Shown one piece after another: positions 1,603-17,085 of a stretch of 18,040 bases of DNA. Origin of the DNA: Candidatus Bathyarchaeota archaeon. Its GTDB lineage: Archaea; Thermoproteota; Bathyarchaeia; Bathyarchaeales; Bathycorpusculaceae. Below the pieces are notes generated by a model that ran no database searches, had not been told where the DNA came from, and worked only from the letters and a program-made list of their open reading frames with translations. Position 1 is the stretch's first letter; each line of letters begins with the position of its first letter. The position numbers and the translations under genes are program-made. The stretch covers positions 1 to 18,040 of the forward strand of contig CAVYHV010000031.1 in NCBI GenBank assembly GCA_963768425.1. Reading direction: 5' to 3'.

Positions 1603-3036
1603 TTAAGGGGTCTCTTTGTTGGCATCAATTTTATGGTTGCTAATTCTTTTTCTCATGTAGAATGCGACAGCTAACACTACGGCCACCACGATAACCGCCA
1701 CAAGTATAACGCTAGAGATAATTGTTTGAGAATTGATTAAGCTTAACGGAGTTGAACTCGGCAACATCGACGGAGCGGTAATGGCGGAAGTTAAATTAGC
1801 TCTTGTCGCTTCAATTCTGTAGACATACCACCCGACGGGGAACGTCCAAGTTCTCACTACTTGCCCCGCAGGGTTCACTTCTACAAACACCGCGCCTGTG
1901 TCATTGAAGTTCCAAGATAGGTCTTCTCCGTTTTCTGAGTTTTGTGGCAAGTGGTGTGTTGGGTCCCCGAAGTCTCCAATGAAGTCTCCGTTTGGAAGAA
2001 TCAGGGTCGCGCCTCCATAGTAGGTCCAGTATTGCATTGGGGCTTCCCAATTCCAACTTACGTGCGCTGTCATGCTTGTTTCGTTTAAAGTTACTTCTAA
2101 CATTTCGCTATGGCAATCATTGGGATTAGTGTTATTTTCGTAATCGTTGTCAAACATGGTGAAGACATTTGGAGCCACTTCTTTCAGATCGTGACTATGG
2201 TACCAAAGAATGGGTGGCAAGCCATTAGCGCCAACAAGCGGCTGACCATTAGCACCGAGAAGAGTAAAGTTGCCAAATTCGCCGCACGACCAAATTATGT
2301 TTCCCGTAGTTTGGTTAATCGCATAGAAAGTGTTTGTGCACCGCAAATTTAGGTAAATAATGCCTTTGCTGTAGTCCCAGTCAAGATCGTTCGCATGTGT
2401 GAAATCCTCCACTGTTAGATCGTTGACTTTGGTTTTAGCTGTCTCGCTAAACGGGGAGGCTTCACTAAGCGGTATGTGACCATAGGTGTCCCAACTCCAA
2501 AGGACATTGCCGTTTGCGTCAACTTCTACAATTTTGTCTAATAGAATCGAGTTGCTTCCGACTTGCCTAACGTAGTCTTGCAGAGTGAGAAAGGTGTTGT
2601 TGACTGGATTGTATTGAATATCATGTTCACTAGTAACATTGGGGAAGTCTTCTGTTGTGTTTGAGGCTAAATTCCATATATGTGTACCATAAACTCCCCA
2701 TACGGTGTTAGCCACATTTACTTCTGGTTCACCTTGGAACAGCAGGGTATCAGGTGTAATGAAGTAAGCGGCGTTGTAGCCTCCTGTGCCCGCAGATTCA
2801 CGGAGGTTTAGCACGGTGCCATTGGTATTCATAACCACTAAATAAGAGGTGTTTCCTGATAGGTCAAACGCTATGTTGCCATCCCACGCGTTTCCGTATG
2901 TGTTGATTGTGCAGGGTAAGGTGAAGTTGCTGCCAGTTTCAGAGTGGGCTATTGGGGAAAAACAGGAAAGCACAAGACATAGTGCAGTTAGCGTCACTAC
3001 TGCGTAAATTGTTTTTTTGCTTCTTGGGAAATGCAA
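1603..3036 (-). CDS. Arylsulfotransferase (ASST) family beta-propeller protein, secreted with C-terminal membrane anchor
   Basis: Motifs HDI, DFTHANDLD, LNLR, YHSHD and MFDND, plus GxVLWSW propeller repeats. Signal peptide at the N-terminus and TM+RKR at the C-terminus. Probable start is TTG at 3036 (GAGG RBS) rather than 3126. Confidence 0.8.
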   Translation of the reverse strand: MHFPRSKKTIYAVVTLTALCLVLSCFSPIAHSETGSNFTLPCTINTYGNAWDGNIAFDLSGNTSYLVVMNTNGTVLNLRESAGTGGYNAAYFITPDTLLFQGEPEVNVANTVWGVYGTHIWNLASNTTEDFPNVTSEHDIQYNPVNNTFLTLQDYVRQVGSNSILLDKIVEVDANGNVLWSWDTYGHIPLSEASPFSETAKTKVNDLTVEDFTHANDLDWDYSKGIIYLNLRCTNTFYAINQTTGNIIWSCGEFGNFTLLGANGQPLVGANGLPPILWYHSHDLKEVAPNVFTMFDNDYENNTNPNDCHSEMLEVTLNETSMTAHVSWNWEAPMQYWTYYGGATLILPNGDFIGDFGDPTHHLPQNSENGEDLSWNFNDTGAVFVEVNPAGQVVRTWTFPVGWYVYRIEATRANLTSAITAPSMLPSSTPLSLINSQTIISSVILVAVIVVAVVLAVAFYMRKRISNHKIDANKETP

Positions 3037-3129
3037 AATGTTTTCCTCTTTTAAGTTTTTTCTTGTGGGCTGGTTCCGCTTAAGTTTGCTCTTAAAAAGA
3101 GGCGAAACTATTAAAGCAATGTCCAAATC

Positions 3130-3413
3130 ATGCCCAAATCTTACCTGTTTTGATCAGTTTTCTTTTTCTTCATGTTTTTCGGAGACAAAAACTTGCAACG
3201 AGCTAAGGCTTTGTTGAAAGCTGCTTTGGAGAGGGAGGATGATTCTGAGGTTAAGGCTGAGATTGAGAGAAGGCTGAAACTGCTGAGCCTAAAGAGGTAA
3301 ATCAAATAAAGTGCAGTATTTGCGGGAAACTCTTTCAAACCAGAGGAAAAAGAAAGTTCAAGAACAGTTTTTGTGAAGAATGTATGAAGAAAAAGTTTGG
3401 AAGCCAAGTATAG
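3130..3413 (+). CDS. Frameshifted small protein with a helical region and C-terminal Zn finger (CSIC...CEEC)
   Basis: MFFGDKNLQRAKALLKAALEREDDSEVKAEIERRLKLL (from 3172) joins, via a -1 shift near 3284, EPKEVNQIKCSICGKLFQ...FCEECMKKKFGSQV*. An in-frame ATG at 3130 is separated from 3172 by a TGA in a T-run region. Confidence 0.65.
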
Positions 3414-3594
3414 AGTTCTAAGGCTCGGAAATAACTATATAGTCTTTGTTTTCTTCTACTGAGAATTTGTTCTTAAGAAATATCCTCATTGCTTGAAGGT
3501 CATATTTGCCTTTAATTTTCAATGATAGATATCTAATCTATGTTCAATACTGACAACAATAGGGCTAACAAGCTGGTGAGCTCCTAACTCTTTT

Positions 3595-3615
3595 AGAAGA
3601 GCGACCGACTCTTCT
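3595..3615. terminator. Small hairpin between convergent genes
   Basis: AGAAGAG-cgaccga-CTCTTCT, a 7-bp perfect stem. Confidence 0.3.
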
Positions 3616-3658
3616 CTATTCACTTGTTTCCCTCAAAGTGCTTATGGACGTACAAAGG

Positions 3659-5029
3659 TTATAGCACTTTGCTGAACAATTGCATAAATATAATTTTGAT
3701 TCTTTGACAAATTTGCACGATAAAATATACTCCTGAAGACCTGCTAAGACGATTTTTTCTAAACTTTAACACTGTGGCAGCAATCACAACAGCAACTATG
3801 ATGCTTGCTGCAGCCGCGTAAAAGTAAACCGAATCTGCGTAAAACGGTGATGGAGCGGGTTGTTGAGGGTTAAGGGATGATGTGGGTATTAGTGCTGTAT
3901 CGTTCCAATAGATGATGCTGTTGTATCCTGCGGATTCAAGTGCTTGTGATGGGTAAACTATGTCCAGGTTATTGCCGTCCATTTGCAAGAGTGTAGAGGC
4001 GCTCATGCCTATGTCAACGGTAAGTGAATCTGTGTTCCATATCCCCCAGAGTTTGTCGTCTGGTCCTCGAAAACCGTAGCCATAATCCTCAGGGAGGACA
4101 TATGCTGTTCTGTCACTAACCGGAGTGATGGTTCTAGGGTTAGCTTGAACGTACTGCCAGAACTGCTTCATGGCGTCGAGCTGCCCTTGCTGTAGAACAT
4201 TTTGAGTGAAGTTTGCGTTGCTATCAAACACGATAATGTATTTTGCTCCATTTTCATATGCAACTAACATATCGCTATAAAGTGCCGGACCCGGCTCGAT
4301 TTGCTGATTTTGCGTCAAAGTTATCATGACCCCCCAATCCTCGTTGAAGGCGGTGGCTGCTCCTCTGCAAAGAGCCACATTCAGTTGTTGGCTATCATTC
4401 GTCCAGCCAGTTTCCCAGCCAAACTCTGTAAAGACCGTGTTATACCCTGCTTGGTAATCATACCAGTAAAGCCCATAGTCTGAGGTGAACAATTGATATT
4501 CTGTTGGGTAATCAAATCTCTGGGTAATTGCGAAGGACCCGTTGCGTAGCAGCTGATTCATGATGTTAACGTAGCTTTCCGCTGCGTCACTATAGTTAGT
4601 TGCCGTAGTGACAATCGGATATTTGGCTTGGTCAAGTTGTTTTCCACCTTCTTCATCTAGGTAATAGATTCCTAGAAAATTGTTTCCCCAATTGTTCTTT
4701 GCTTCTTGGAGCCATTGGCTTGAGGGATATCTTGGGTCATCGGAGTAAACTATGATGGTTAAACCCTTGTTGTATATGTACTGGCTGATGACAGTGAGTC
4801 TCGTTAGATTGTAGTTTCCAGTGCATCCGATTACGAAGAAATTTGTGTAGGAACTGACGTTATTGATTAATTGTTCAGTTGTAGCTACACTTTCGAAGGC
4901 GACATCGACGCCAAAATACAGGTTAGGCGAAGCTTGCGTAGTGGCCGCTTGGGTTGTCTGCGTGCCGTTCAGGAAAAGCGGCAAAACCAGCAACGCAATG
5001 AGCAGAACTGTGAGTTGCTTTAGTTTCAT
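3659..5029 (-). CDS. Secreted, membrane-anchored protein with a glycoside-hydrolase-like TIM-barrel pattern
   Basis: Signal peptide; motifs GIYYLDEEGGKQLD, TSDYGLYWYDY, TEFGW, ALCRGAA and WGVMIT; Pro-rich linker; TM then KFRK. I recall this as a Bathyarchaeia paralog family (unverified). Confidence 0.8.
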   Translation of the reverse strand: MKLKQLTVLLIALLVLPLFLNGTQTTQAATTQASPNLYFGVDVAFESVATTEQLINNVSSYTNFFVIGCTGNYNLTRLTVISQYIYNKGLTIIVYSDDPRYPSSQWLQEAKNNWGNNFLGIYYLDEEGGKQLDQAKYPIVTTATNYSDAAESYVNIMNQLLRNGSFAITQRFDYPTEYQLFTSDYGLYWYDYQAGYNTVFTEFGWETGWTNDSQQLNVALCRGAATAFNEDWGVMITLTQNQQIEPGPALYSDMLVAYENGAKYIIVFDSNANFTQNVLQQGQLDAMKQFWQYVQANPRTITPVSDRTAYVLPEDYGYGFRGPDDKLWGIWNTDSLTVDIGMSASTLLQMDGNNLDIVYPSQALESAGYNSIIYWNDTALIPTSSLNPQQPAPSPFYADSVYFYAAAASIIVAVVIAATVLKFRKNRLSRSSGVYFIVQICQRIKIIFMQLFSKVL

Positions 5030-5456
5030 TTAGTTTATATGAAAAAATTTGTTAATCTAATAAGACTTTACCAAAAACAGTATATAATAAATTAAACTGA
5101 ATTACAGCTGAATTTGTTCCAAATATCAATAACAGACTTTAATAAAGAAAACATTTTCATTTTATCCCAATAATCTTTCGTCAATTTCTCCCATTTCTTA
5201 TCTGTGGCGCACCGAAAACAATCGCTGATCAATGCGAACAGTTAGATAGTTTTCTTTTCCAATTTTTTGATCAGAATCTAAAAAATTTTGGGCCTCTGTG
5301 TTGACGGCTCTTATGGGATTCGATGCTCTGGAGATTTTTGAACTTGACGATTTTGTCTCCTTCTTGCACTAGATATTGAGTACCTGGGAAACTCATTCTT
5401 GCTTATGGCTAGAGAAACGAAAGCTTTGCCGTATATTGTGGAGTTGAACCTGTTCC

Positions 5457-5689
5457 AGAGTGTGTTAAAACTTGGAGCTAATTTTTAATGGCATCGAGCA
5501 TTTGATCTATTGCCTGCAAGTCTCATTCACTTGTTTTTACTTCTTCACCAAACTTACTAGCGCCTCAACTCCAAAAATATTGATGACTCGTCTCATATTG
5601 TAAGCAAGCATTGTAAATCCGACCTCTCCTCTAACCTTGCGCAAACCTTTCAAGAGCACATAACCCTGATTGAAAGCACGCTTAATAGT
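5457..5689 (-). mobile_element. IS1182-family remnant: transposase C-terminus plus probable right terminal inverted repeat
   Basis: 5689..5537 translates to TIKRAFNQGYVLLKGLRKVRGEVGFTMLAYNMRRVINIFGVEALVSLVKK*, the typical DDE C-terminal K...G..KV..E....LAYN motif. AGAGTGTGTTAAAA at 5457-5470 resembles IS1182-type ends. Confidence 0.8.
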
Positions 5690-5707
5690 CGGCCGTCCGG
5701 GAGAGTC

Positions 5708-5740
5708 ATTGAAGACGCGCCGGAGGCTTCAGTCTTCAAT
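5708..5740. repeat. 9-bp perfect inverted repeat at the IS/island junction
   Basis: ATTGAAGAC (5708-5716) ... GTCTTCAAT (5732-5740). Confidence 0.55.
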
Positions 5741-5834
5741 AGAGAAAAAAAGATTTGTTGTTCTTCTCGGACTAAAACGCTAAGGTAGCTTGCACGGTGG
5801 AGCACACTGTTTCACAGAAGAAAAAAGAAGGAAA

Positions 5835-6723
5835 CTATTGGAGGGTTATGCTTTGCGCAGACAGCACAAACACCCAGTATCCGCTGCTGTCCTGGATCGT
5901 GGTTGCCGCCTGGTAGCTTGTGCCCGCCCACGTCTCAAGCTGATAATATCCGCTGAATACTGAGGAAGCGGACACAGTTTGCCCGTATACGCTGCCAACC
6001 ATGTTCCAGCCGGCGTTCAGGTTCACTGTGCACGTGGTCTGCGGGGTGCCTATCAAAGTCAGCGTTTGGCTTGACGGCACAAATATCAAGTAGGATTGCC
6101 CAGCTGTGACTGTTGTCGGCGTCGTGTAGCTGTATCCGTTCCAAGTTACGGCTTCAGCCCCTGAGATGCCGCTGAGAACACTGCTTAAGTTCGGGTTTGC
6201 AGGAACCGCTGAAAACGACACTTGGTTCCAGCCAGCATTTAATTGTATGCCTGAGATTCCAAGTCCAATGTTGAAACTGAAGTAAACAATGCTCTGAGTC
6301 TATGCCGGACCCAATAACCAAGGATAACTGCGCTGGTATGATGTTTCCAGGGTTCAACTGTACGCCGGTGCAGTTTAACGTTAATGTGAAGTCCTGTGAG
6401 TAATCGCCTGATACGGCGTTGTCTGACGCGTCTTCATAAACGAAGTCGGATGCTGTGGGAGACTCTAACAGGAAAGAAGAGGATCCAGTGTTTTCCAAGT
6501 AAAATGTGGCTGTGCTTGCTACTCCTAAAGTGACGGTTCCCCAATTTACTGTTGTAAGCGGTGACTGGGCTTCTGAATCTGAATAAACTGCTAAAGACGG
6601 AGTGGCTGCTTTGACAGTTGAATAGCAGTTTGGGAATCCTTTTTCGCTGCGGAAAACCCAGAAGACTGTGGCCGTAACCAAAATGACGAGGGCAATAGTG
6701 GCTATTTTCTTCTTCAATTTCAA
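5835..6723 (-). CDS. Secreted ~295-aa protein: Ig/TasA-like N-domain plus two LNAGWN repeats (rejoined across a +1 frameshift at ~6300)
   Basis: Removing one base at 6300 joins ORF 6154..6723 (...LSLVIGSGI) to TQSIVYFSFNIGLGISGIQLNAGWNQVSFSAVP and on into ORF 5835..6221. N-terminal signal/anchor. Confidence 0.8.
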
Positions 6724-6887
6724 TTAACTCCCTCTTCCTTGTCCTGGTCCGGCAGAGCTATGAGTTGAGATTCAGTTATTTTTACGGGTTGGGGGTTCCA
6801 CCCGGCGAAACTCTTCTCGATGTCGTCAAGGCGTTGGCGTATGTTCATCATTTCTTTAAATATGCTTTCAAGAACTGATCGCCGCAT
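6720..6887 (-). CDS. 55-aa coiled-coil peptide, possibly a truncated transcription regulator; not in ORF track
   Basis: MRRSVLESIFKEMMNIRQRLDDIEKSFAGWNPQPVKITESQLIALPDQDKEEGVN*. TAATG coupling with the upstream gene, TTGA overlap with the downstream gene, GAAGGAG RBS. Confidence 0.65.
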   Translation of the reverse strand: MRRSVLESIFKEMMNIRQRLDDIEKSFAGWNPQPVKITESQLIALPDQDKEEGVN

Positions 6888-7702
6888 TATTTTCTCCTTC
6901 TAAGAATCACCGCTATCACAAGCAGCACAGCAGCCACAGCCATAACGAACACTGCGATTTTGACGGATACATCCACTATGCCTGAACCGCCGACGCTGAA
7001 AGACGGAAGCTTCCAATTGCCCACGCTCCAGCCGTACCAGAACATCCACCAGGGATGAGTGGCTCCCTGAGGTGCAGGCGAAGCAGAAGCTGCAGGCGTC
7101 GGCGAAGGCGAATTGTTGCTTCCGCCTGAGTCTCCGCTGCCGCCTCCTGACCCTGATCCTGAAGACGGCGTCGGTGAAGGGCTGGTCGACGTCTCCGACG
7201 CGTCTACTGTGAAGCTGTATAATGTGCCCGAGTTCGCCGTGAAAACGTACGTGCCCTGAGTCAACATGTTGATTTGGCTGCCTCCGCTAGGGGTTAGAGT
7301 CAATGTGGATGCTGGCACGCTTGTGCTCCAGCTCAGAGTCAGCGATCCTGACTGCCCCACGTTCTCAACGTATAAGGTCCAGAGCCAGGAAGACCCCGAA
7401 TCCGGCTGGATGTCCTGGCTGAGGCCCTGCAGGTTAACTGGGCTACTTGGGTTTCCGCTTTCGTACAGGTAACTGTAGACGCCCTGCGGCGGCGCAGGAG
7501 GCACAACTAAGTCGTTGGATTCGTCAAAACCAGAAATCGCCGTGCTGCTTATGCCGAAAGTTGTGGTGCTGCTGTATCCGCTGCTGGAGGCGGTGACTGT
7601 TAAGTTCCAGTCTGTTGTTGCATGTGTTAAAGGCGCATAAATCAAAGTTGCTGAAAGAATAATTAATGCTGCTAACGCAAGTTTTTTGCTATTCAAATCC
7701 AC
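6887..7702 (-). CDS. Surface protein: signal peptide, FG..A..GFD..D...PP.PP domain, S/P/G linker, C-terminal TM + RRRK
   Basis: Seen directly in the translation; GAGGG RBS before GTG. Confidence 0.85.
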   Translation of the reverse strand: MDLNSKKLALAALIILSATLIYAPLTHATTDWNLTVTASSSGYSSTTTFGISSTAISGFDESNDLVVPPAPPQGVYSYLYESGNPSSPVNLQGLSQDIQPDSGSSWLWTLYVENVGQSGSLTLSWSTSVPASTLTLTPSGGSQINMLTQGTYVFTANSGTLYSFTVDASETSTSPSPTPSSGSGSGGGSGDSGGSNNSPSPTPAASASPAPQGATHPWWMFWYGWSVGNWKLPSFSVGGSGIVDVSVKIAVFVMAVAAVLLVIAVILRRRK

Positions 7703-7742
7703 ATTCCCTCTAAAAGAAAAAAGAAAGGAAATCTGGAATCTG

Positions 7743-10700
7743 CTAAGCTCGCCTTTTCGTCAGCACAGCAAGGGAGCCAACAATCACAACCGATAGTATA
7801 GCGACGACGACTGCGAAGGGAACCCAGCCGGTTGGAACCGAAAAGCCGCCGTAGCCTGACTCTTCTGAAGCAACACTGAAACTGATTGGGGCCGTTGACT
7901 GATGCTGCACGCCGTTCGCGTCCAAACCCGTCAACGTTGCTGTGAGGCTGTAGCTGCCGGCGGCTGTTCCAGCTGGAAGGTTGAACTCCACGGTTACCTG
8001 CCCTGAACTTCCGTAGAAGGTGCTTGGCAAATTAATCGCTGTCACGTACTGGGTCAGAGAACCCGTGAAGGAAACTGATTCCACGTTGAAGTTGGATCCT
8101 ACAAACGTGAACGCTAAAGTTTCCGTCTGGTTAGTACTCGCTGTCACTGTGCCCAGGTTCTGGCTGCTCAAAGTCACCGATGTTGAGCCGCCTGAGGATC
8201 CGCCTGAGCCTCCGGACCCGCCTGAACTAGATGACGCCCAGCTGACAACAACAGAGGCTACGTTGCTGTACAATCCTGTGAGGACCCCGGTTGCGGTGTT
8301 GTATGCTCCTGACATTTCCGTCACAGTTACTGGTACCCCGTAGCTGCCGCAACTGAACACTAACGTGCCAGAGCCTGTGCTCACAAAGTTGACTGTTAAG
8401 GTTTCCCCGTTCCAGGACAATGTCGACAGTGGCGTATCTGCTTCTTCAACGTAGAAGCCGCTGCCCCACGCATCAAAATTGACTGACACATAGTTGCTGC
8501 TGTTGGCGACGGAAACACTGAAGACTCCACCGGTGTAGGCGGTGCTGAGCACGTAGCTGACGCCAGTCACGTAGGTTGGGACCTGCCCGCAGTCAGTCAC
8601 GAAGGTACACGTCGAGGTCGACGCGCTGAAGTTCACTGCCAGGTCCGTTCCATCCCAGGCGACGTTGCTTATGCCTCTATTGGCAGCTACATGGTGGGTG
8701 ACACTGTTGAATATGTACGGGTACGCCGTGCAGCTAACAGGGCACGTCATGCTGCTGGTTACTGTGACGCTGAAGGTGGCGTTAACCGAAACCCCCTTCC
8801 ACGTGGCGGATCCTTGATATGACGTACCGGATGTGATGTTGGTCAGGGAAATCTGGCCAGACAAAGCCGGGTAAGTGGCGCCATTAAGCGTGAACACTGT
8901 GTTTGGCAGCAGGTTCCCCGCCGTGTCCTTAGCCTGCAGTGTCAAAACTAAGTTTCCTGAACTCTGGGAATAACTCGCCGTGTAGGTACCGGTCACGGTT
9001 TCTGCAGCGTTCACTGTCAGCGGCGACGTCGCCGACGCAGTCTGCAGATTGAAGCTTTCACCGCTGTTCGAACTCGAAACAGTCGACGCATAGCTGAAGG
9101 TCGCGGTTCCCCCGCTATTAACCCAGAGGGAAAATGGCAGTGCACTGTAGGCCTTGGCGACGCTATTCACCGTCACCACGGTTCCTGACGCTGAAGAATC
9201 CAAGCCGGACTGCGCGAAAGTGACCTGGTACTGCGTAGTCCAGGCTGCGGATTCAGTGATCGCCATGTTCATGGTGACGGAATCCGAAGCGGTTGAGCCG
9301 CTGTATGATCCTGTGCCGGTTCCTGTCCATGCGCTGAAGACATACTGGGTCCCGGTTGCTCCTGCAGCAGGCGTGGATACAGTGAAGGTTGCGTAAGCCC
9401 CTGAGTTGTACCAGCCCTGGCCAGACGGGGAACCATAGCTTGAAGTCACCGTCAAATAGTACTGGGTTCCGTAGTTGCCCGTGATTGTGGCTGCTGCAGA
9501 AACAGTGTAAGGCGAAGTCTGCGAGGAACCCGACAGGACGAATTGTTTCCCGGGGCTGCTGCTGACTGGGCTGGTCCAGCTGAAGATAACTTGGCTGCCG
9601 CTGTTAACCCAGACCTGGTAGGGCAGGGCTGAGTAGGCTTCGTTGTTGCCGGCGGCGGTTACCACAGTGCCCTGCGCCGAACTGTCCAGGCCTGACTGCG
9701 CAAAAGATACTTGGTACTGGGTGGTCCAGCTGGCTGTGGACGTCTGCGCCTGGTTCATGGTGATGGCGCTGCTCTGTGCGTAGCTGGTGCCGCCCGTGCT
9801 CCAGCTGCTGAAGACGTATTGGATTCCGCTGCCTCCGTTGACTGTGCCTGCGTTCAAGCCGGCATAGGCGGTTGTTCCTTGAGTGTACCAGCCTGAACCC
9901 GAGGGCACGCCATACGCGCTGTTGACTGTCAGGTAATACTGGGTTACCCAGTTTGCCGACGCAGTCACCGGCGTATTCATGGTGATCGCGTTGGATTGCG
10001 CGTAGTTTGTGCCGCCGGTTGACCAGCCGGTAAAAGCGTACTGGGCGCCTGAACCCGCAGAAACCGTTCCGGTGCTGAGGCCCGCGTAGGCGACGGATCC
10101 AACGTTGTACCATCCGCTGCCCGACGTGGATCCGTAGCTGCTGCTTACTGTGAGAGAAACCTGCTTCTGCCAGTAATAATAGATCGTGTGTGCGGCGGTT
10201 ACGTCTGTGAAGGTGTAGCTGGTTCCGCTGTACTGGGCTCCTGCGCCGCCGTTGTCGATGCTGTACCCGGTGCAGACGTATTGGACGCCGCTGCCTCCGC
10301 TCCATGGCGAAGTAACGCTTGTTGCGTAGGATCCTCCATAATTGGCGCTTCCCGACGCTGTTGGAGATCCATAGCTGGAATAGACGGTAATGGTGTAAGT
10401 GATTGGTGACGTCGAGACTGAAATGGTGTGCGGGCCTTGGACGTTGCTAAAGCTGTAAGAACCCGTTATTGGAACTGAACCGCCGTCAACTAAAACACTG
10501 TTGATTGAGTACCCTGTGTTAGCTGAATATGTGAAAGTCGGCGAGCTACCCTGGTCATAATAGGTCGTTCCAGATGGGCTAATGGTTGAATGTGAATCTG
10601 AGCTTGCGGTAATTGGAAATTGATAAGTCACTGAAAGGTACGGCGTGTTGCCTGATTGACTGGTGTCGATCGCTGCGTCAACGCCATTATTGAAAACGCC

Positions 10701-11268
10701 ATTAATATCGTTGGGAGTTCTGAGGCAAAACTTTGTTTCTCCGCCGACATTTATCCAGCTTAAGCCTTGGCTGCTAAGGGAAATGCTGTTCCAGCCAGTT
10801 GAGCTTACTGTAGCCGACCCGCCGTTTCCATTATAGTTTCCGCTATAGAAGTCGCCGGCTGCTAACGGATCATGGGGGTAAGTAGGCTGCCCATTTTGAA
10901 TGACTACAGTGGGAGAACCGCCAGAACCCAAGGCGTTTATGTCCAGATTCAGGGTTGCACTTGTGATAACGGCTCCCACTGGTATTGAGCTCGTGTCAAA
11001 GAAGACAAAGCTGCGGTCAACATAATAGTACGTGCCGCCGGCAACGATTTGCCATTGCCCACACATCATTTGAGTGTAGCCGTTATCCACCGTTCCTGAA
11101 CTTGAAGATTGAGACGCGCTGTCAGCTAGTTAAGTAGCTGTAGATGTAGCCGTTAGAGGCGCTTGAGTAAAAGGTGGATGTTGTAGCTTTCGCTGAATGC
11201 ATCCCTACCAAACTGATTCCGCACAACAGAACAAAAAACAACATGACTGCGGATACACTTTTCTTCAT
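7743..11268 (-). CDS. Large (~1174 aa) S/T/G-rich surface adhesin: signal peptide, DNRLRE-like domain, tandem beta-sandwich repeats, C-terminal TM + KRR
   Basis: ATG at 11268 gives signal peptide MKKSVSAVMLFFVLLCGISLVGMHSAKA. Removing one base at ~11123 joins it to ORF 7743..11090. RSFVFFDTSSIPVGAVITSATLNL...PYLSVTY is the DNRLRE-type signature. Confidence 0.88.
8975..10390 (-). repeat. Internal tandem domain repeats of the adhesin (A units ~74 aa, B units ~85 aa)
   Basis: A: LTVxSxYGxxSGxGWY...QYxFxxW...TMN...AxWxTQY, with DNA match TTCATGGTGAT at 9754 and 9976 (222 nt apart). B: QYQVxFAQSGLDSSAxGTVVT...AYSALP at ~9209 and ~9695 (486 nt apart). Confidence 0.85.
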
Positions 11269-13858: not shown

Positions 13859-13884
13859 AAACTAAGTTTGCTTTTTTTCTTTTC

Positions 13885-14763
13885 CTATTTTTCGGCATTT
13901 AATTTTCTTGTCTTAGCGGAGGCTATCACATTCTTGTACTTAGAAAGCCACTCATTCATTTCTTGTCTCTGTTTCTGTGGAATTTGTTTTAGCGTTGGCA
14001 GGTAGCGACTGGATTTTATTTTTCCTACCTTTGCATATCCTGATTTGTCTATCGAAATGATAGCATCAATTTCAGTGATGAGATTGTTGGTTCTCTTAAT
14101 TAGCCAATCGTCAGGCACATCAAAGTAATTGATTTGTCTCAAGTTAACACTAATCTTCGGAAGTTGTTTTGGATAAACTAAGGCTTCCCAAATGCTCTGT
14201 AATTCTTGCGGTAAGCTAACATTTTTATAAATTTCGCAAGAAACGGCTTGCAGAAGCCTTTGAGCAAATGATCCTTCTCGATCGGTCAGTTTAGATATTT
14301 GAACTGGCAACCATACGAGATTCGGAACAAATGAATTAAGCATGTGATGCCTCGATGAAATTATGTAGTTGTTATCGACAGTAATCTTTCCCCAAATATG
14401 GCTTGCCACAAAACCAGTTCCAAGCTTTTTGCCATCATAAGCAGGGATATTTGCGCTCTTAATTGGAAAACTTCTGACTATCCCTTTCAGTAATGTGTTA
14501 TCGTCACGCAAGTAACCTTTCGAATTCGCTGATCCCCACTCATCATGACCATTGGATGTTTTAGTTCTGCAGGAATTATCTCTAACAACATATGGTAAGA
14601 TTATCGGAAGCTGGGTATAGAAATTACTTGGAATCCAAATTGAAAGGTCAATAAGTAAATGCTTTATCAATTCCTTGGAAAACTCGTTATCTTCTCGCAT
14701 TAGGCTCTGCAAGTAATGGTAGAGGATGTTTTGTCCATCGACAACTTTATTGCCAGTGTTCAA
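13885..14763 (-). CDS. Hypothetical protein with an HNH-like nuclease motif, third gene of the R-M operon
   Basis: GFVASHIW...LNSFVPNLVWLP resembles a His-Me-finger core. Starts 8 nt after the REase stop. Confidence 0.7.
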   Translation of the reverse strand: MNTGNKVVDGQNILYHYLQSLMREDNEFSKELIKHLLIDLSIWIPSNFYTQLPIILPYVVRDNSCRTKTSNGHDEWGSANSKGYLRDDNTLLKGIVRSFPIKSANIPAYDGKKLGTGFVASHIWGKITVDNNYIISSRHHMLNSFVPNLVWLPVQISKLTDREGSFAQRLLQAVSCEIYKNVSLPQELQSIWEALVYPKQLPKISVNLRQINYFDVPDDWLIKRTNNLITEIDAIISIDKSGYAKVGKIKSSRYLPTLKQIPQKQRQEMNEWLSKYKNVIASAKTRKLNAEK

Positions 14764-14771
14764 GACTCTCG

Positions 14772-15477
14772 CTAAGACTCCTTTTGAGGATTCATGAGTT
14801 TTTTCAAGTCATCAACAAACTTGTCAAACATTTTTACTTTATCGCTTTCTTCTATGGGGTTAGGGCACATTATATAACTCCCATCAGTATCCACTTCTAC
14901 TATGGCTCTGCCTTTCTTGGCTGGTTTTCTAATTGCTAGAGTACAATCCTCATCGGGAGTAACAAAAAATACTTTTATATGCTCAGTAACTTTATCACCT
15001 GAGAGCTTAATTTTCCAATATCCAGTTTGAGCGATTCGCTCTCGCAAAGTAACTTTGCTGGAAATTACCGCAAGGACCTTCAAAGTTTTTGGTTCATAGA
15101 CTACTAAGTCAACATCAGGTAAATGAGACCCAAACTCTCCAAAATCAACTAGTTAGATTTCGTTTTATTTGCCCCAAATCTTTTGGTAGATTCTTACCGT
15201 TGGTCCGTTCTAGGGTATTTCCTTCAACTATGCGTAATCCAAGCGATTCTATCTCTGTTCTGAGCATATGCAAAACTATTTTTTCAAGATTTTTGCCTTT
15301 CCAGGCTCGCCACGATTGCTCATGATCATTCATCGTTGTAGGATTCTTAAGCCAATCTTTGTGATGAAGCTCTTTGGCTTCATCAAACAACTCTGAGATA
15401 TGCTTGTAAACGTTAGGACCGTAGATTTTGCGCTTCTCTTCATACAACTCTATTAAATCATCGATTCTCATAGTCAA
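14772..15477 (-). CDS. BsaWI-like Type II restriction endonuclease (CCGG family), rejoined across a +1 frameshift at ~15153
   Basis: QSWRAWKGKNLE, then (after removing one A) NLLVDFGEFGSHLPDVDLVVY...AVISSKVTLRERIAQ. This is the PD...SxKxxxRER motif of CCGG-family PD-(D/E)xK enzymes. ~234 aa. Confidence 0.85.
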
Positions 15478-15486
15478 GAGGTTGTT

Positions 15487-16772
15487 CTATTCGCCTTTTT
15501 TGCTTTTCCCTCTCTTGTAATATGTCCAGTTAATTTCTCTAAGTTCTTCAGTTTTTCCGTCATTTGGAAATGGCTTTCTCATGATAAAAAGATACTTGAA
15601 CCCTCGTAAATAGAAATTAAAACGCCTAGCACGGTTTGCCCAAATACCTGTATTGGAGGATTGATTTCTTCGAGCAATGCAGATGATGTCGACTGTATCG
15701 AAATATTTTGCCATCCTCGCATACAACAAGAAACCGACAGGTGTAAATTTCTTTTTAACCCACTGGTCTCCTATCAGCCAGCCGAGGACTTTTCCAGGCT
15801 TCAATATTCGATGGGATTCTTTTATTACTTTTTCAAGTTCATCGTAAAACTCTTCTGTTTCGCTTGAAATGCATCCGATACATTCAGGCTCTTCGTTGTA
15901 TTTGATGTTATCACCATATGGCGAATCTATGAATACCATATCGGCATAATTGTCAGGAAGCGGTATTTTCCTCGCGTCATTCTTCAGAATGTCTTTTCTG
16001 TAAGGTGGAGGGGAAACGTCATAGCATATTGCTTTCCTTCCTTCTTCTTTGCAAACGTCAAGGGTAGTTCCACTTCCACACATTGGATCAACCACAAGGT
16101 CTCCTGGCTCTGTATATCGCCAAACCATATTCCATATGAGCTCTGCGGGAGTCACGCCTGCATATTTGTTGTTGCCCTTTGGAGTGTTTCCATAACTTTG
16201 CCTTGGAAAATCCCAAAGTGTAGTTGACTGCATCTGAGGTACTTCTTCAACATCCTCCTCTTTTTTGTTATTTTTGACATGAGGTAGCATTTGCCAAGAT
16301 TTGGGCTCTACGGATATCTCCAGTTTTTCAGTTTTCTTACCTTCTGATAAGAATTCGAACCACTCGTTGATTGGAACTCTTTCGGGCCTGTACAGTTCTA
16401 GAACCGTAATGGTTTTGCTCTTGCCAAATGGCGATGACCTACCTATGTTCAGATTAGTTAGAAGCTTTTTGGCATCTTTCAGAGGATACATTTTTCCGAG
16501 CGGCTCAACTTTGACTTGGTAGGGATAGTTTCCCCCCAAGCTTCAGGAACTATGTTTATTTTTGCATCAGTACTTGCTTTGAATACTCCATACAGTAGGT
16601 CAGTGTCTAAATTCCATAGGAATAGGAAATCACCTTTTTTAACCCTAATTGCGGTGGCACCATAAACCTTGTTTTTTCCAAACAATAATCGTTCAAAGCA
16701 CTCATTTTGAGATGAGTTAGTGCATGCGAATATGAAGCTTTTTGTGGTGACAGGTAGCAGCTTTTGGGTCAC
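15487..16772 (-). CDS. DCD-domain / amino (N4-C or N6-A) DNA methyltransferase fusion, rejoined across a G6 run at 16532-16537
   Basis: N-terminus FIFACTNSSQNECFERLLFG...LFLWNLDTDLLYGVFKAS...IVPEAWG|GNYPYQVKV matches the DCD pattern. C-terminus has motif I DPMCGSGTT and motif IV DSPY. ~428 aa if one G is added. Confidence 0.85.
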
Positions 16773-16814
16773 TTATGGTTCCTCACGATAAACTTTTACT
16801 GATTACTGCGTTCA

Positions 16815-16830
16815 AGTTAATATAAGTATT
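16815..16830 (-). promoter_or_regulatory. Putative TATA box of the R-M operon
   Basis: CTTATATTAA on the minus strand ~45-50 nt upstream of GTG 16772; GAGG RBS. Confidence 0.4.
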
Positions 16831-17085
16831 AAAGAATATGGTAGAAATCCAACTAAATGCATGATTTGCAAAAACTTCACTTTTACTAGCCCCTCCTCTT
16901 TCCTGCAGATTAGTTTCTGCAATTCATTTTCAAGTGATTTGAACCTGATGCTTGAACCCGAGTGAAAGCTTATGAAAACGAAATTAGGTTGCCTGGAGGC
17001 TTAGCAAGCGTGAGCAAGACTATTCCTTCTTACCGAACAATGCGAGTCTGGGTTTCCCATTTTTTCAATTCTATTTCTACGCTTT

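Follow-up and report, generated by a model that had tools for sequence, protein, structure and literature searches.

The 18,040-nucleotide (nt) stretch analyzed here (hereafter the window; contig CAVYHV010000031.1 of assembly GCA_963768425.1, Candidatus Bathyarchaeota archaeon) carries on its minus strand a three-gene cassette, which encodes a methyltransferase with an N-terminal DCD domain, a restriction endonuclease of the BsaWI family, and a 292-amino-acid (aa) protein of an unnamed family. Judged from domain content, the first two genes are an ordinary Type II restriction-modification (R-M) pair with a reader domain on the methylase (module 1). The third gene probably encodes an independently mobile, nucleolytic protein stacked at the 3' end of module 1 (module 2). 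In its widest form our reading is tentative, and we doubt that every part of it will hold: the 292-aa protein would be the founding member of a widespread and so far undescribed family, whose homodimeric HNH-like nucleases accompany cytosine-methylation defence systems as portable partners. They would act in a Type IV-like manner on foreign DNA bearing hypermodified cytosine or another mark absent from the host, thereby closing a route of phage escape, and would form here a two-layer system with the reader-bearing methylase.

The three genes are co-oriented and tightly spaced, as the first-pass annotation of this DNA had stated, with gaps of 9 nt between the methylase and endonuclease genes (15478-15486) and 8 nt between the endonuclease gene and the 292-aa open reading frame (ORF; 14764-14771). 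The features are as follows.

15487..16772, minus strand: DCD-methyltransferase fusion gene, split here into 16479-16772 (97 aa) and 15487-16539 (350 aa); about 428 aa if read through
16455..16739, minus strand: DCD (PUA-like) domain, crossing the frame break; PF10539 match
16532..16537, minus strand: G6 run, one base fewer than in relatives; -1 frame break of the methylase, from DNA alignment
15574..16242, minus strand: methyltransferase catalytic region, with motif I DPMCGSGTT (16063-16089) and the motif IV-like DSPY (15916-15927)
14772..15477, minus strand: BsaWI/CCGG-family restriction endonuclease gene, split here into 15145-15477 and 14772-15152; about 232-236 aa in relatives
15150..15156, minus strand: CTAACTA, one A more than in relatives (15153/15154); +1 frame break of the endonuclease, from DNA alignment
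15036..15119, minus strand: endonuclease catalytic and recognition motifs, PDVD (15108-15119) and K-x3-R-E-R (15036-15056)
13885..14763, minus strand: gene for the 292-aa protein, unnamed family, probable homodimeric His-Me finger (HNH-like) nuclease, from conservation and predicted structure
14212..14508, minus strand: predicted His-Me finger core, residues ~86-184, with H122 (14398-14400), N148 (14320-14322) and D161 (14281-14283), from invariant columns and the ranges aligned in the HNH matches
13934..16852, minus strand: mobile cassette, the block common to related Bathyarchaeia loci, from blastn

An unnamed protein family and its predicted fold

The 292-aa ORF was intact and full-length compared with its family. 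Searches at E≤1e-3 recovered 230 relatives (90% clusters), every one recorded as 'hypothetical', and 390 representative clusters at 50% identity. According to the records, the hosts include Bathyarchaeia, Micrarchaeota, Aenigmarchaeota, Bacteroidota, Actinomycetota, Peregrinibacteria, Nitrospirales and Pirellulales, among others. No model in Pfam, NCBIfam, PHROGs or PADLOC matched the protein, and PADLOC returned only a Csm3 row (E 0.046). Against the PDB sequences, the single protein gave no usable match and the family profile gave only eL38-like chance rows (E 0.07). A search of the ESM Atlas with the 292-aa protein returned unnamed clusters only, and no description of the family was found in the literature on DrmMII, Vsr and HNH.

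An alignment of 32 family members contained 32 invariant columns, including R61, R66, W76, D87-D88-N89, K93, H122, W124, N148, D161 and R162; H122 and N148 were also invariant in an alignment of 23 sequences. The AlphaFold model had a pLDDT of 83 for the whole protein and of 81 for the core (residues 35-215). In the predicted structure, strand 118-122 ends with H122, and N148 stands just before strand 149-153, which leads into helix 154-160. H122 may act as the His general base, and D161 or D87/D88 may hold the metal.

Structure searches with the whole model (Foldseek and a wide search) were dominated by the C-terminal helical hairpin and matched helical hairpins only, and the core was therefore folded alone. 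Foldseek of the core against the PDB returned nothing at E<0.39. The Foldseek list held eight entries with weak scores, all of them HNH enzymes (Cap5, ScoMcrA, EcoKMcrA, BrxU), and about 20 of the top 50 matches among viral models, also weak, were named as HNH or homing endonucleases. With all scores weak and their direction uniform, an HNH-like fold appears likely for the 292-aa protein. The first-pass annotation had called the third gene an HNH-like nuclease; the structural matches to HNH enzymes agree with that call, while the HNH sequence profiles gave no match. Two profile results speak against the assignment: the 32 family members had no HNH match in Pfam at E≤10, and the HNH profile PF13391 found nothing in the genome of the window. 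A PF13391 search of 41 genomes gave one match only.

A homodimer of the 292-aa protein was predicted with an ipSAE of 0.56, against 0.00 for the best control; the runs shared at least 87% of contacts, with a pLDDT of at least 83. In a benchmark, 20 of the 30 solved one-chain pairs reached the ipSAE mark, as did 1 of the 23 single chains. Residues 5-18, a conserved N-terminal arm, take part in the predicted interface, and for this reason the TTG start at 14763 is favoured over the 271-aa database call (P0001).

In one family member of 501 aa (P0162), a complete family domain (33% identity, E 4e-52) comes after two Mrr_N domains (PF14338, E 1e-24). The domain behind Mrr_N in Mrr-type Type IV enzymes is normally a nuclease. 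No longer fused forms of 556-2000 aa were found, which is weak evidence, and the extensions of the 416-512 aa forms contained no Pfam domain except Mrr_N in P0162. Several Bacteroidales members (P0144, P0148, P0169, P0175, and the 426-aa forms of loci L017/L020) have a C-terminal extension of ~140-180 aa without a Pfam domain; P0144 gave a below-threshold row for a cap-snatching (PD-D/ExK) endonuclease.

The HNH resemblance might instead be a chance likeness of a small beta-beta-alpha element in a protein with a binding or regulatory role. This appears quite improbable: the structural matches in three libraries are almost exclusively HNH enzymes, the invariant His and Asn fall on predicted strands ahead of a helix, and the family domain of P0162 stands after two Mrr_N domains.

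Neighbourhoods of the third gene and its possible role

Neighbourhoods were surveyed in 108 loci, comprising 28 genome loci (L029, a 21-residue match, was excluded) and the best 80 of 134 metagenome loci; the counts thus describe the loci that matched best, which include many short and some near-identical ones. Of the metagenome loci with at least 4 kb of flank, 20 of 42 had a cytosine-system gene nearby (a C5 methylase in 15) and 22 did not; among shorter metagenome loci the proportion was 10 of 38. Neighbouring genes were named by PADLOC as DrmA, DrmB, DrmC and DrmMII (DISARM class 2) or as MzaB, MzaC and MzaD. The canonical motif (D/N/S)PP(Y/F/W) was absent from every neighbour ORF of at least 150 aa in the 29 genome loci, in which two hits were DPPH, and it occurred in two ORFs of the metagenome set, L079 (DPPF, adjacent) and L098 (SPPY, 4 kb away). 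The family sits at the edge of cytosine-methylation defence (Type II R-M, DISARM class 2 and Mza), with about half of its members standing alone.

At 45% identity, the partner C5 methylases formed 12 groups whose variable regions are unlike one another; the third gene is accordingly not tied to a single methylation specificity. Its relatives coexist with BsaWI-, MvaI/BcnI- and Eco47II-like endonucleases. A quick tree of 99 family members largely followed host groups, and the DCD/BsaWI label requires at least three changes within the archaeal clade, which points to a switching of partners.

Some arrangements recurred. A trio of a DrmMII-like C5 methylase, a glycosylase-like HhH-GPD protein and a third-gene relative was seen in L054, L059, L065, L067, L069, L070, L072, L073, L082 and L007, in varying gene order and often beside DrmA/B/C (DISARM class 2); in L007 and L072 the stretch covered contained no methylase. 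In one Peregrinibacteria genome and one Micrarchaeota genome (L012 52-6858 and L018 114-6807), a C5 methylase-MzaB-MzaC-MzaD operon ended with the relative (gaps of 16 and 5 nt). On a Pirellulales contig (L004 1126-2160), a 344-aa protein was encoded 330 nt upstream of the relative; its N-terminal part gave weak EVE/DCD-like matches below the cut-offs (E 6e-4 and 2.5e-3), and its C-terminal 230 aa were unmatched.

Within the two-module picture, the third protein may be a Type IV-like nuclease, the reading that we prefer while rating it somewhat short of probable. Several observations favour it: the protein is predicted to dimerise, one relative is fused to Mrr_N, Type IV enzymes appear among the structural matches, and loci in which the gene stands alone are frequent. 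BrxU, a nuclease embedded in a BREX island and thus stacked onto a methylation-based system, is a precedent (PMC8565348). The HNH-type Type IV enzymes EcoKMcrA and ScoMcrA, together with BrxU, rank among the best structural matches of the third protein, and its family resembles the Type IV enzymes in standing alone at times, in its defence-island context and in the one Mrr_N fusion. It differs from them in having neither membership in a sequence profile nor a recognisable modified-base reader domain. Such a nuclease would act independently of the specificity of the neighbouring methylase and would cut foreign DNA carrying modifications that the host does not make; it would thereby block the escape of modified-DNA phages from module 1.

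Three points weigh against the Type IV-like reading. The Mrr_N fusion was seen in a single protein, a singleton from a contig of 4.2 kb. As the chief difficulty, a modification-dependent nuclease in a methylase operon risks the host DNA, unless its target differs from the host mark; given the tight operonic linkage with methylases, a Type IV-like target must therefore differ from the host's own mark. Further, the tight and repeated linkage to C5 methylases and to Vsr or HhH-GPD genes fits a repair role or a methylase-partnered role equally.

In the first of these alternatives, the third gene would encode a repair nuclease for cytosine-methylation damage (T:G/U:G mismatches that arise by deamination, or abasic sites produced by a mismatch glycosylase) that works beside Vsr or HhH-GPD and not in defence. 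Like Vsr and HhH-GPD, the family consists of small, conserved enzymes whose genes adjoin those of C5 methylases with many different specificities, in no fixed gene order. Vsr was a neighbour in 11 of the 108 loci and an HhH-GPD protein in 11; the HhH-GPD gene was often directly upstream in the same orientation, and PADLOC matched a neighbouring HhH-GPD protein to its 'Type II nicking endonuclease' model (E 2e-41). However, the family accompanies Vsr and HhH-GPD and does not replace them, the Vsr (PF03852) and HhH-GPD profiles in Pfam did not match the 292-aa protein, and its predicted fold and dimer differ from theirs. The 22 long loci without a nearby cytosine-system gene, the methylase of the window, which is an amino-methyltransferase and not a C5 enzyme, and the Mrr_N fusion, which points toward restriction, also argue against repair, and the predicted symmetric homodimer suits double-strand cutting above nicking. 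We therefore consider a repair role unlikely. Passages of a preprint on the YprA helicase mention neither a glycosylase nor the third family.

In the second alternative, the protein would be an endonuclease for unmodified DNA that is blocked by cytosine methylation, namely the restriction component ('R') of the methylase and repair modules, and a second such component in the window. This would account for loci such as L069, L070, L073, L082, L122 and L126, in which it is the sole nuclease candidate beside a C5 methylase and Vsr or HhH-GPD. Every gene order was seen, with gaps of -4 to 161 nt in the closest cases, and the predicted homodimer is likewise compatible. Yet the partner methylases are diverse while the family is conserved with its 32 invariant columns, endonucleases of other families are present in the same loci, and many members have no methylase nearby, so that we judge this role to be improbable. 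A specificity-matched Type II endonuclease was rated low, since the partner methylases are diverse.

The methyltransferase-endonuclease pair and its frame breaks

The first-pass annotation had placed an N-terminal DCD domain on the methyltransferase, and both domains were recovered. PF10539 (Dev_Cell_Death) matched residues 12-95 of the 97-aa N-terminal fragment (E 4.2e-17; 62.6 bits against a curated cut-off of 27.8), the remainder of the domain (GGNYPYQVKVE...) runs on in the second frame and aligns with relatives, and PF01555 (N6_N4_Mtase) matched the 350-aa fragment (E 2.3e-25). In addition, the PADLOC model MTase_II (PDLC03376) matched methylase residues 100-322. Motif I (DPMCGSGTT) and the subsequent motif IV-like DSPY were kept in 8 of 8 aligned methylase sequences. 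The DCD-methylase is a single ORF of 428 aa in L002 and L003, and it is one polypeptide also in four genomes of the genus. DCD is a PUA-like module that is predicted to bind a modified base. The amino-methyltransferase would protect the host's own sites, and the DCD domain may steer it to DNA that is already marked, either hemimethylated or otherwise modified.

The CCGG-family motif reported for the endonuclease was likewise found. PF18643 (RE_BsaWI) matched the C-terminal fragment (E 2.1e-30; profile positions 13-105 of 105), and PDVD and SSKVTLRER were kept in all six aligned endonucleases covering that part. The endonuclease is a single ORF of 232-236 aa in L002 and L003. Its K-x3-R-E-R spacing equals that of K165/R169-D170-R171 in BsaWI, where K165 is described as the catalytic lysine and R169-D170-R171 as the motif by which CCGG-family enzymes recognise CCGG (Tamulaitis et al., 2015; PMC4652773). 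The likeness to this family lies in the RE_BsaWI match, the PD...K pattern and the K-x3-R-(D/E)-R spacing. By simple spacing, the endonuclease has no D/E at K+10 or K+13, where D175 of BsaWI and E201 of NgoMIV lie. A CCGG-family PD-(D/E)XK endonuclease would cut unmethylated sites that probably contain CCGG.

Passages of an in silico study (Bell, Wolf and Koonin, 2020, BMC Biol 18:159; PMC7641849) describe DCD as a domain often joined to a Rossmann-fold methyltransferase. As in the archaeal pairs of that study, the window has an N-terminal DCD domain and a Rossmann methyltransferase, parted here by the frame break but one polypeptide in intact relatives, with a PD-(D/E)XK nuclease gene directly after it; in contrast to them, the nuclease belongs specifically to the BsaWI/CCGG family, and a third gene, of which those passages make no mention, is present. 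The first-pass annotation had not known the combination as a characterised system, and the description of the pair in that study qualifies this statement. Its overall interpretation as an R-M system stands for the pair of a DCD-methyltransferase and a BsaWI-type endonuclease as far as domains are concerned, but the two genes are not single open frames here, a circumstance that the annotation had evidently noticed, since it speaks of rejoined proteins.

Three points count against taking module 1 as a working pair of known specificity. DSPY is neither of the canonical SPPY and DPPY, so that the methylase may act on either N4 of cytosine or N6 of adenine; the best solved relatives of the methylase are N4-cytosine and N6-adenine enzymes, matched around motif I only. 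The endonuclease is a distant family member, in that phmmer at E≤1 did not link it to the solved BsaWI chain. Finally, both genes are frameshifted as assembled, and the pair may be dead or mis-assembled.

The methylase break is a one-base deficit, with a G6 run in the window where L002, L003 and L006 read GGGGnGG. At the endonuclease break, the window reads CTAACTAG and L002, L003 and L032 read CT-ACTnG. Contigs of sequencing runs X3 and X20 (~96-97% identical) have one base more behind 16531, giving a G7 run in one of them. None of the runs examined spans the endonuclease break, and none identical to the window spans the methylase break. Long-read assemblies under-call homopolymer runs such as this G7.

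Three conserved core-family genes of the same assembly are also frameshifted inside a Pfam domain, all of them outside the window.

G000 C9:259421-260067: split GTP_EFTU-family GTPase
G000 C8:206908-208027: split RNA polymerase subunit B, one of two copies
G000 C9:24037-25226: split family-B DNA polymerase, one of three copies, in three frames

The other long genes examined in this genome were whole. The three frameshifts suggest indel errors in the assembly or pseudogenised paralogues, and the two copies of subunit B may reflect some contamination of the assembly. Because core-family genes are affected too, assembly indel errors are likely, and the two breaks in the window therefore cannot be taken as decay.

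Alternatively, both frameshifts are real and the R-M pair in this genome is a dead remnant, with only the third gene still functional; we regard this as a substantial possibility, if a little less than an even one. Each of the two genes has a one-base indel relative to all relatives compared, and decay is seen elsewhere. In G043 (L035 1160-1183), an independent 2-nt deletion lies in the CTCTCTCT (CT) repeat of the endonuclease gene, ~30 nt upstream of the position of the break in the window, and the DCD-methylase beside it stays whole (416 aa). In a decayed cassette (L001 5977-6846), the methylase is gone and only 33 nt of the endonuclease gene remain (97% identity with window 14999-15031), directly adjoining a third gene that is broken into two ORFs; the third-gene copy of G022, which may be the same record as L001, has an internal TAG. 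In the window, no damage apart from the two indels has accumulated. On the other side stand the three frameshifted core-family genes and the extra methylase base in near-identical contigs from other samples. Further, the methylase and endonuclease fragments of the window are still 85-94% identical to intact relatives.

Mobility and distribution of the cassette

The window shares with L002 the block 13934-16774 and with L003 the block 13978-16852, and the flanks are unrelated (blastn and tblastx). The association of the three genes, on which the first-pass annotation was built, recurs beyond the window, with the third gene near the pair also in L002, L003 and L006, in the last of which it is oriented divergently. 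Among 101 genomes of the genus, seven were listed with a match, six of them to the DCD-methylase (that of the window included) and one (G017) weak and partial; the third gene was found in three of the 101. G013, G043, G064 and G078 have the methylase-endonuclease pair (~58% identity) and no third gene within 505-808 nt downstream. Neither a tRNA gene nor convincing flanking repeats were found at the cassette ends. These comparisons show a horizontally mobile cassette of ~2.9 kb, and on balance we lean slightly towards the picture of two separable modules, an R-M pair and an added nuclease.

In contigs of runs X2 and X3, the match is confined to the 33 bases of window 13873-13905, where the third gene has its 3' end; beyond these bases, in both directions, the contigs are unlike the window. 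Most of the contig is occupied by a row of large secreted or membrane-anchored proteins unrelated to the cassette (1603-11090; 507, 456, 271 and 1115 aa), of which the 1115-aa protein is highly repetitive and G+C-rich. At 5835-6723 on the minus strand, ORFs of 189 and 128 aa overlap in different frames and resemble a single gene disrupted by a frameshift; a paralogue on contig C18 is open over 305 aa.

The first two genes are one more example, possibly mis-assembled, of a pair known from genome comparison, and the presence of a DCD reader on a protective methylase raises a question that is approachable through the intact relatives L002 and L003. The third gene is a new lead, as it represents an unnamed family of ~390 clusters outside the profile libraries searched, with a consistent HNH-like fold signal and a marked preference for cytosine methylases and mismatch-repair genes (DISARM, Mza and Type II). 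If it is truly a nuclease with a defined substrate, be it modified DNA, mismatches or abasic sites, it would fill an annotation gap in many defence islands and might yield a reagent enzyme.

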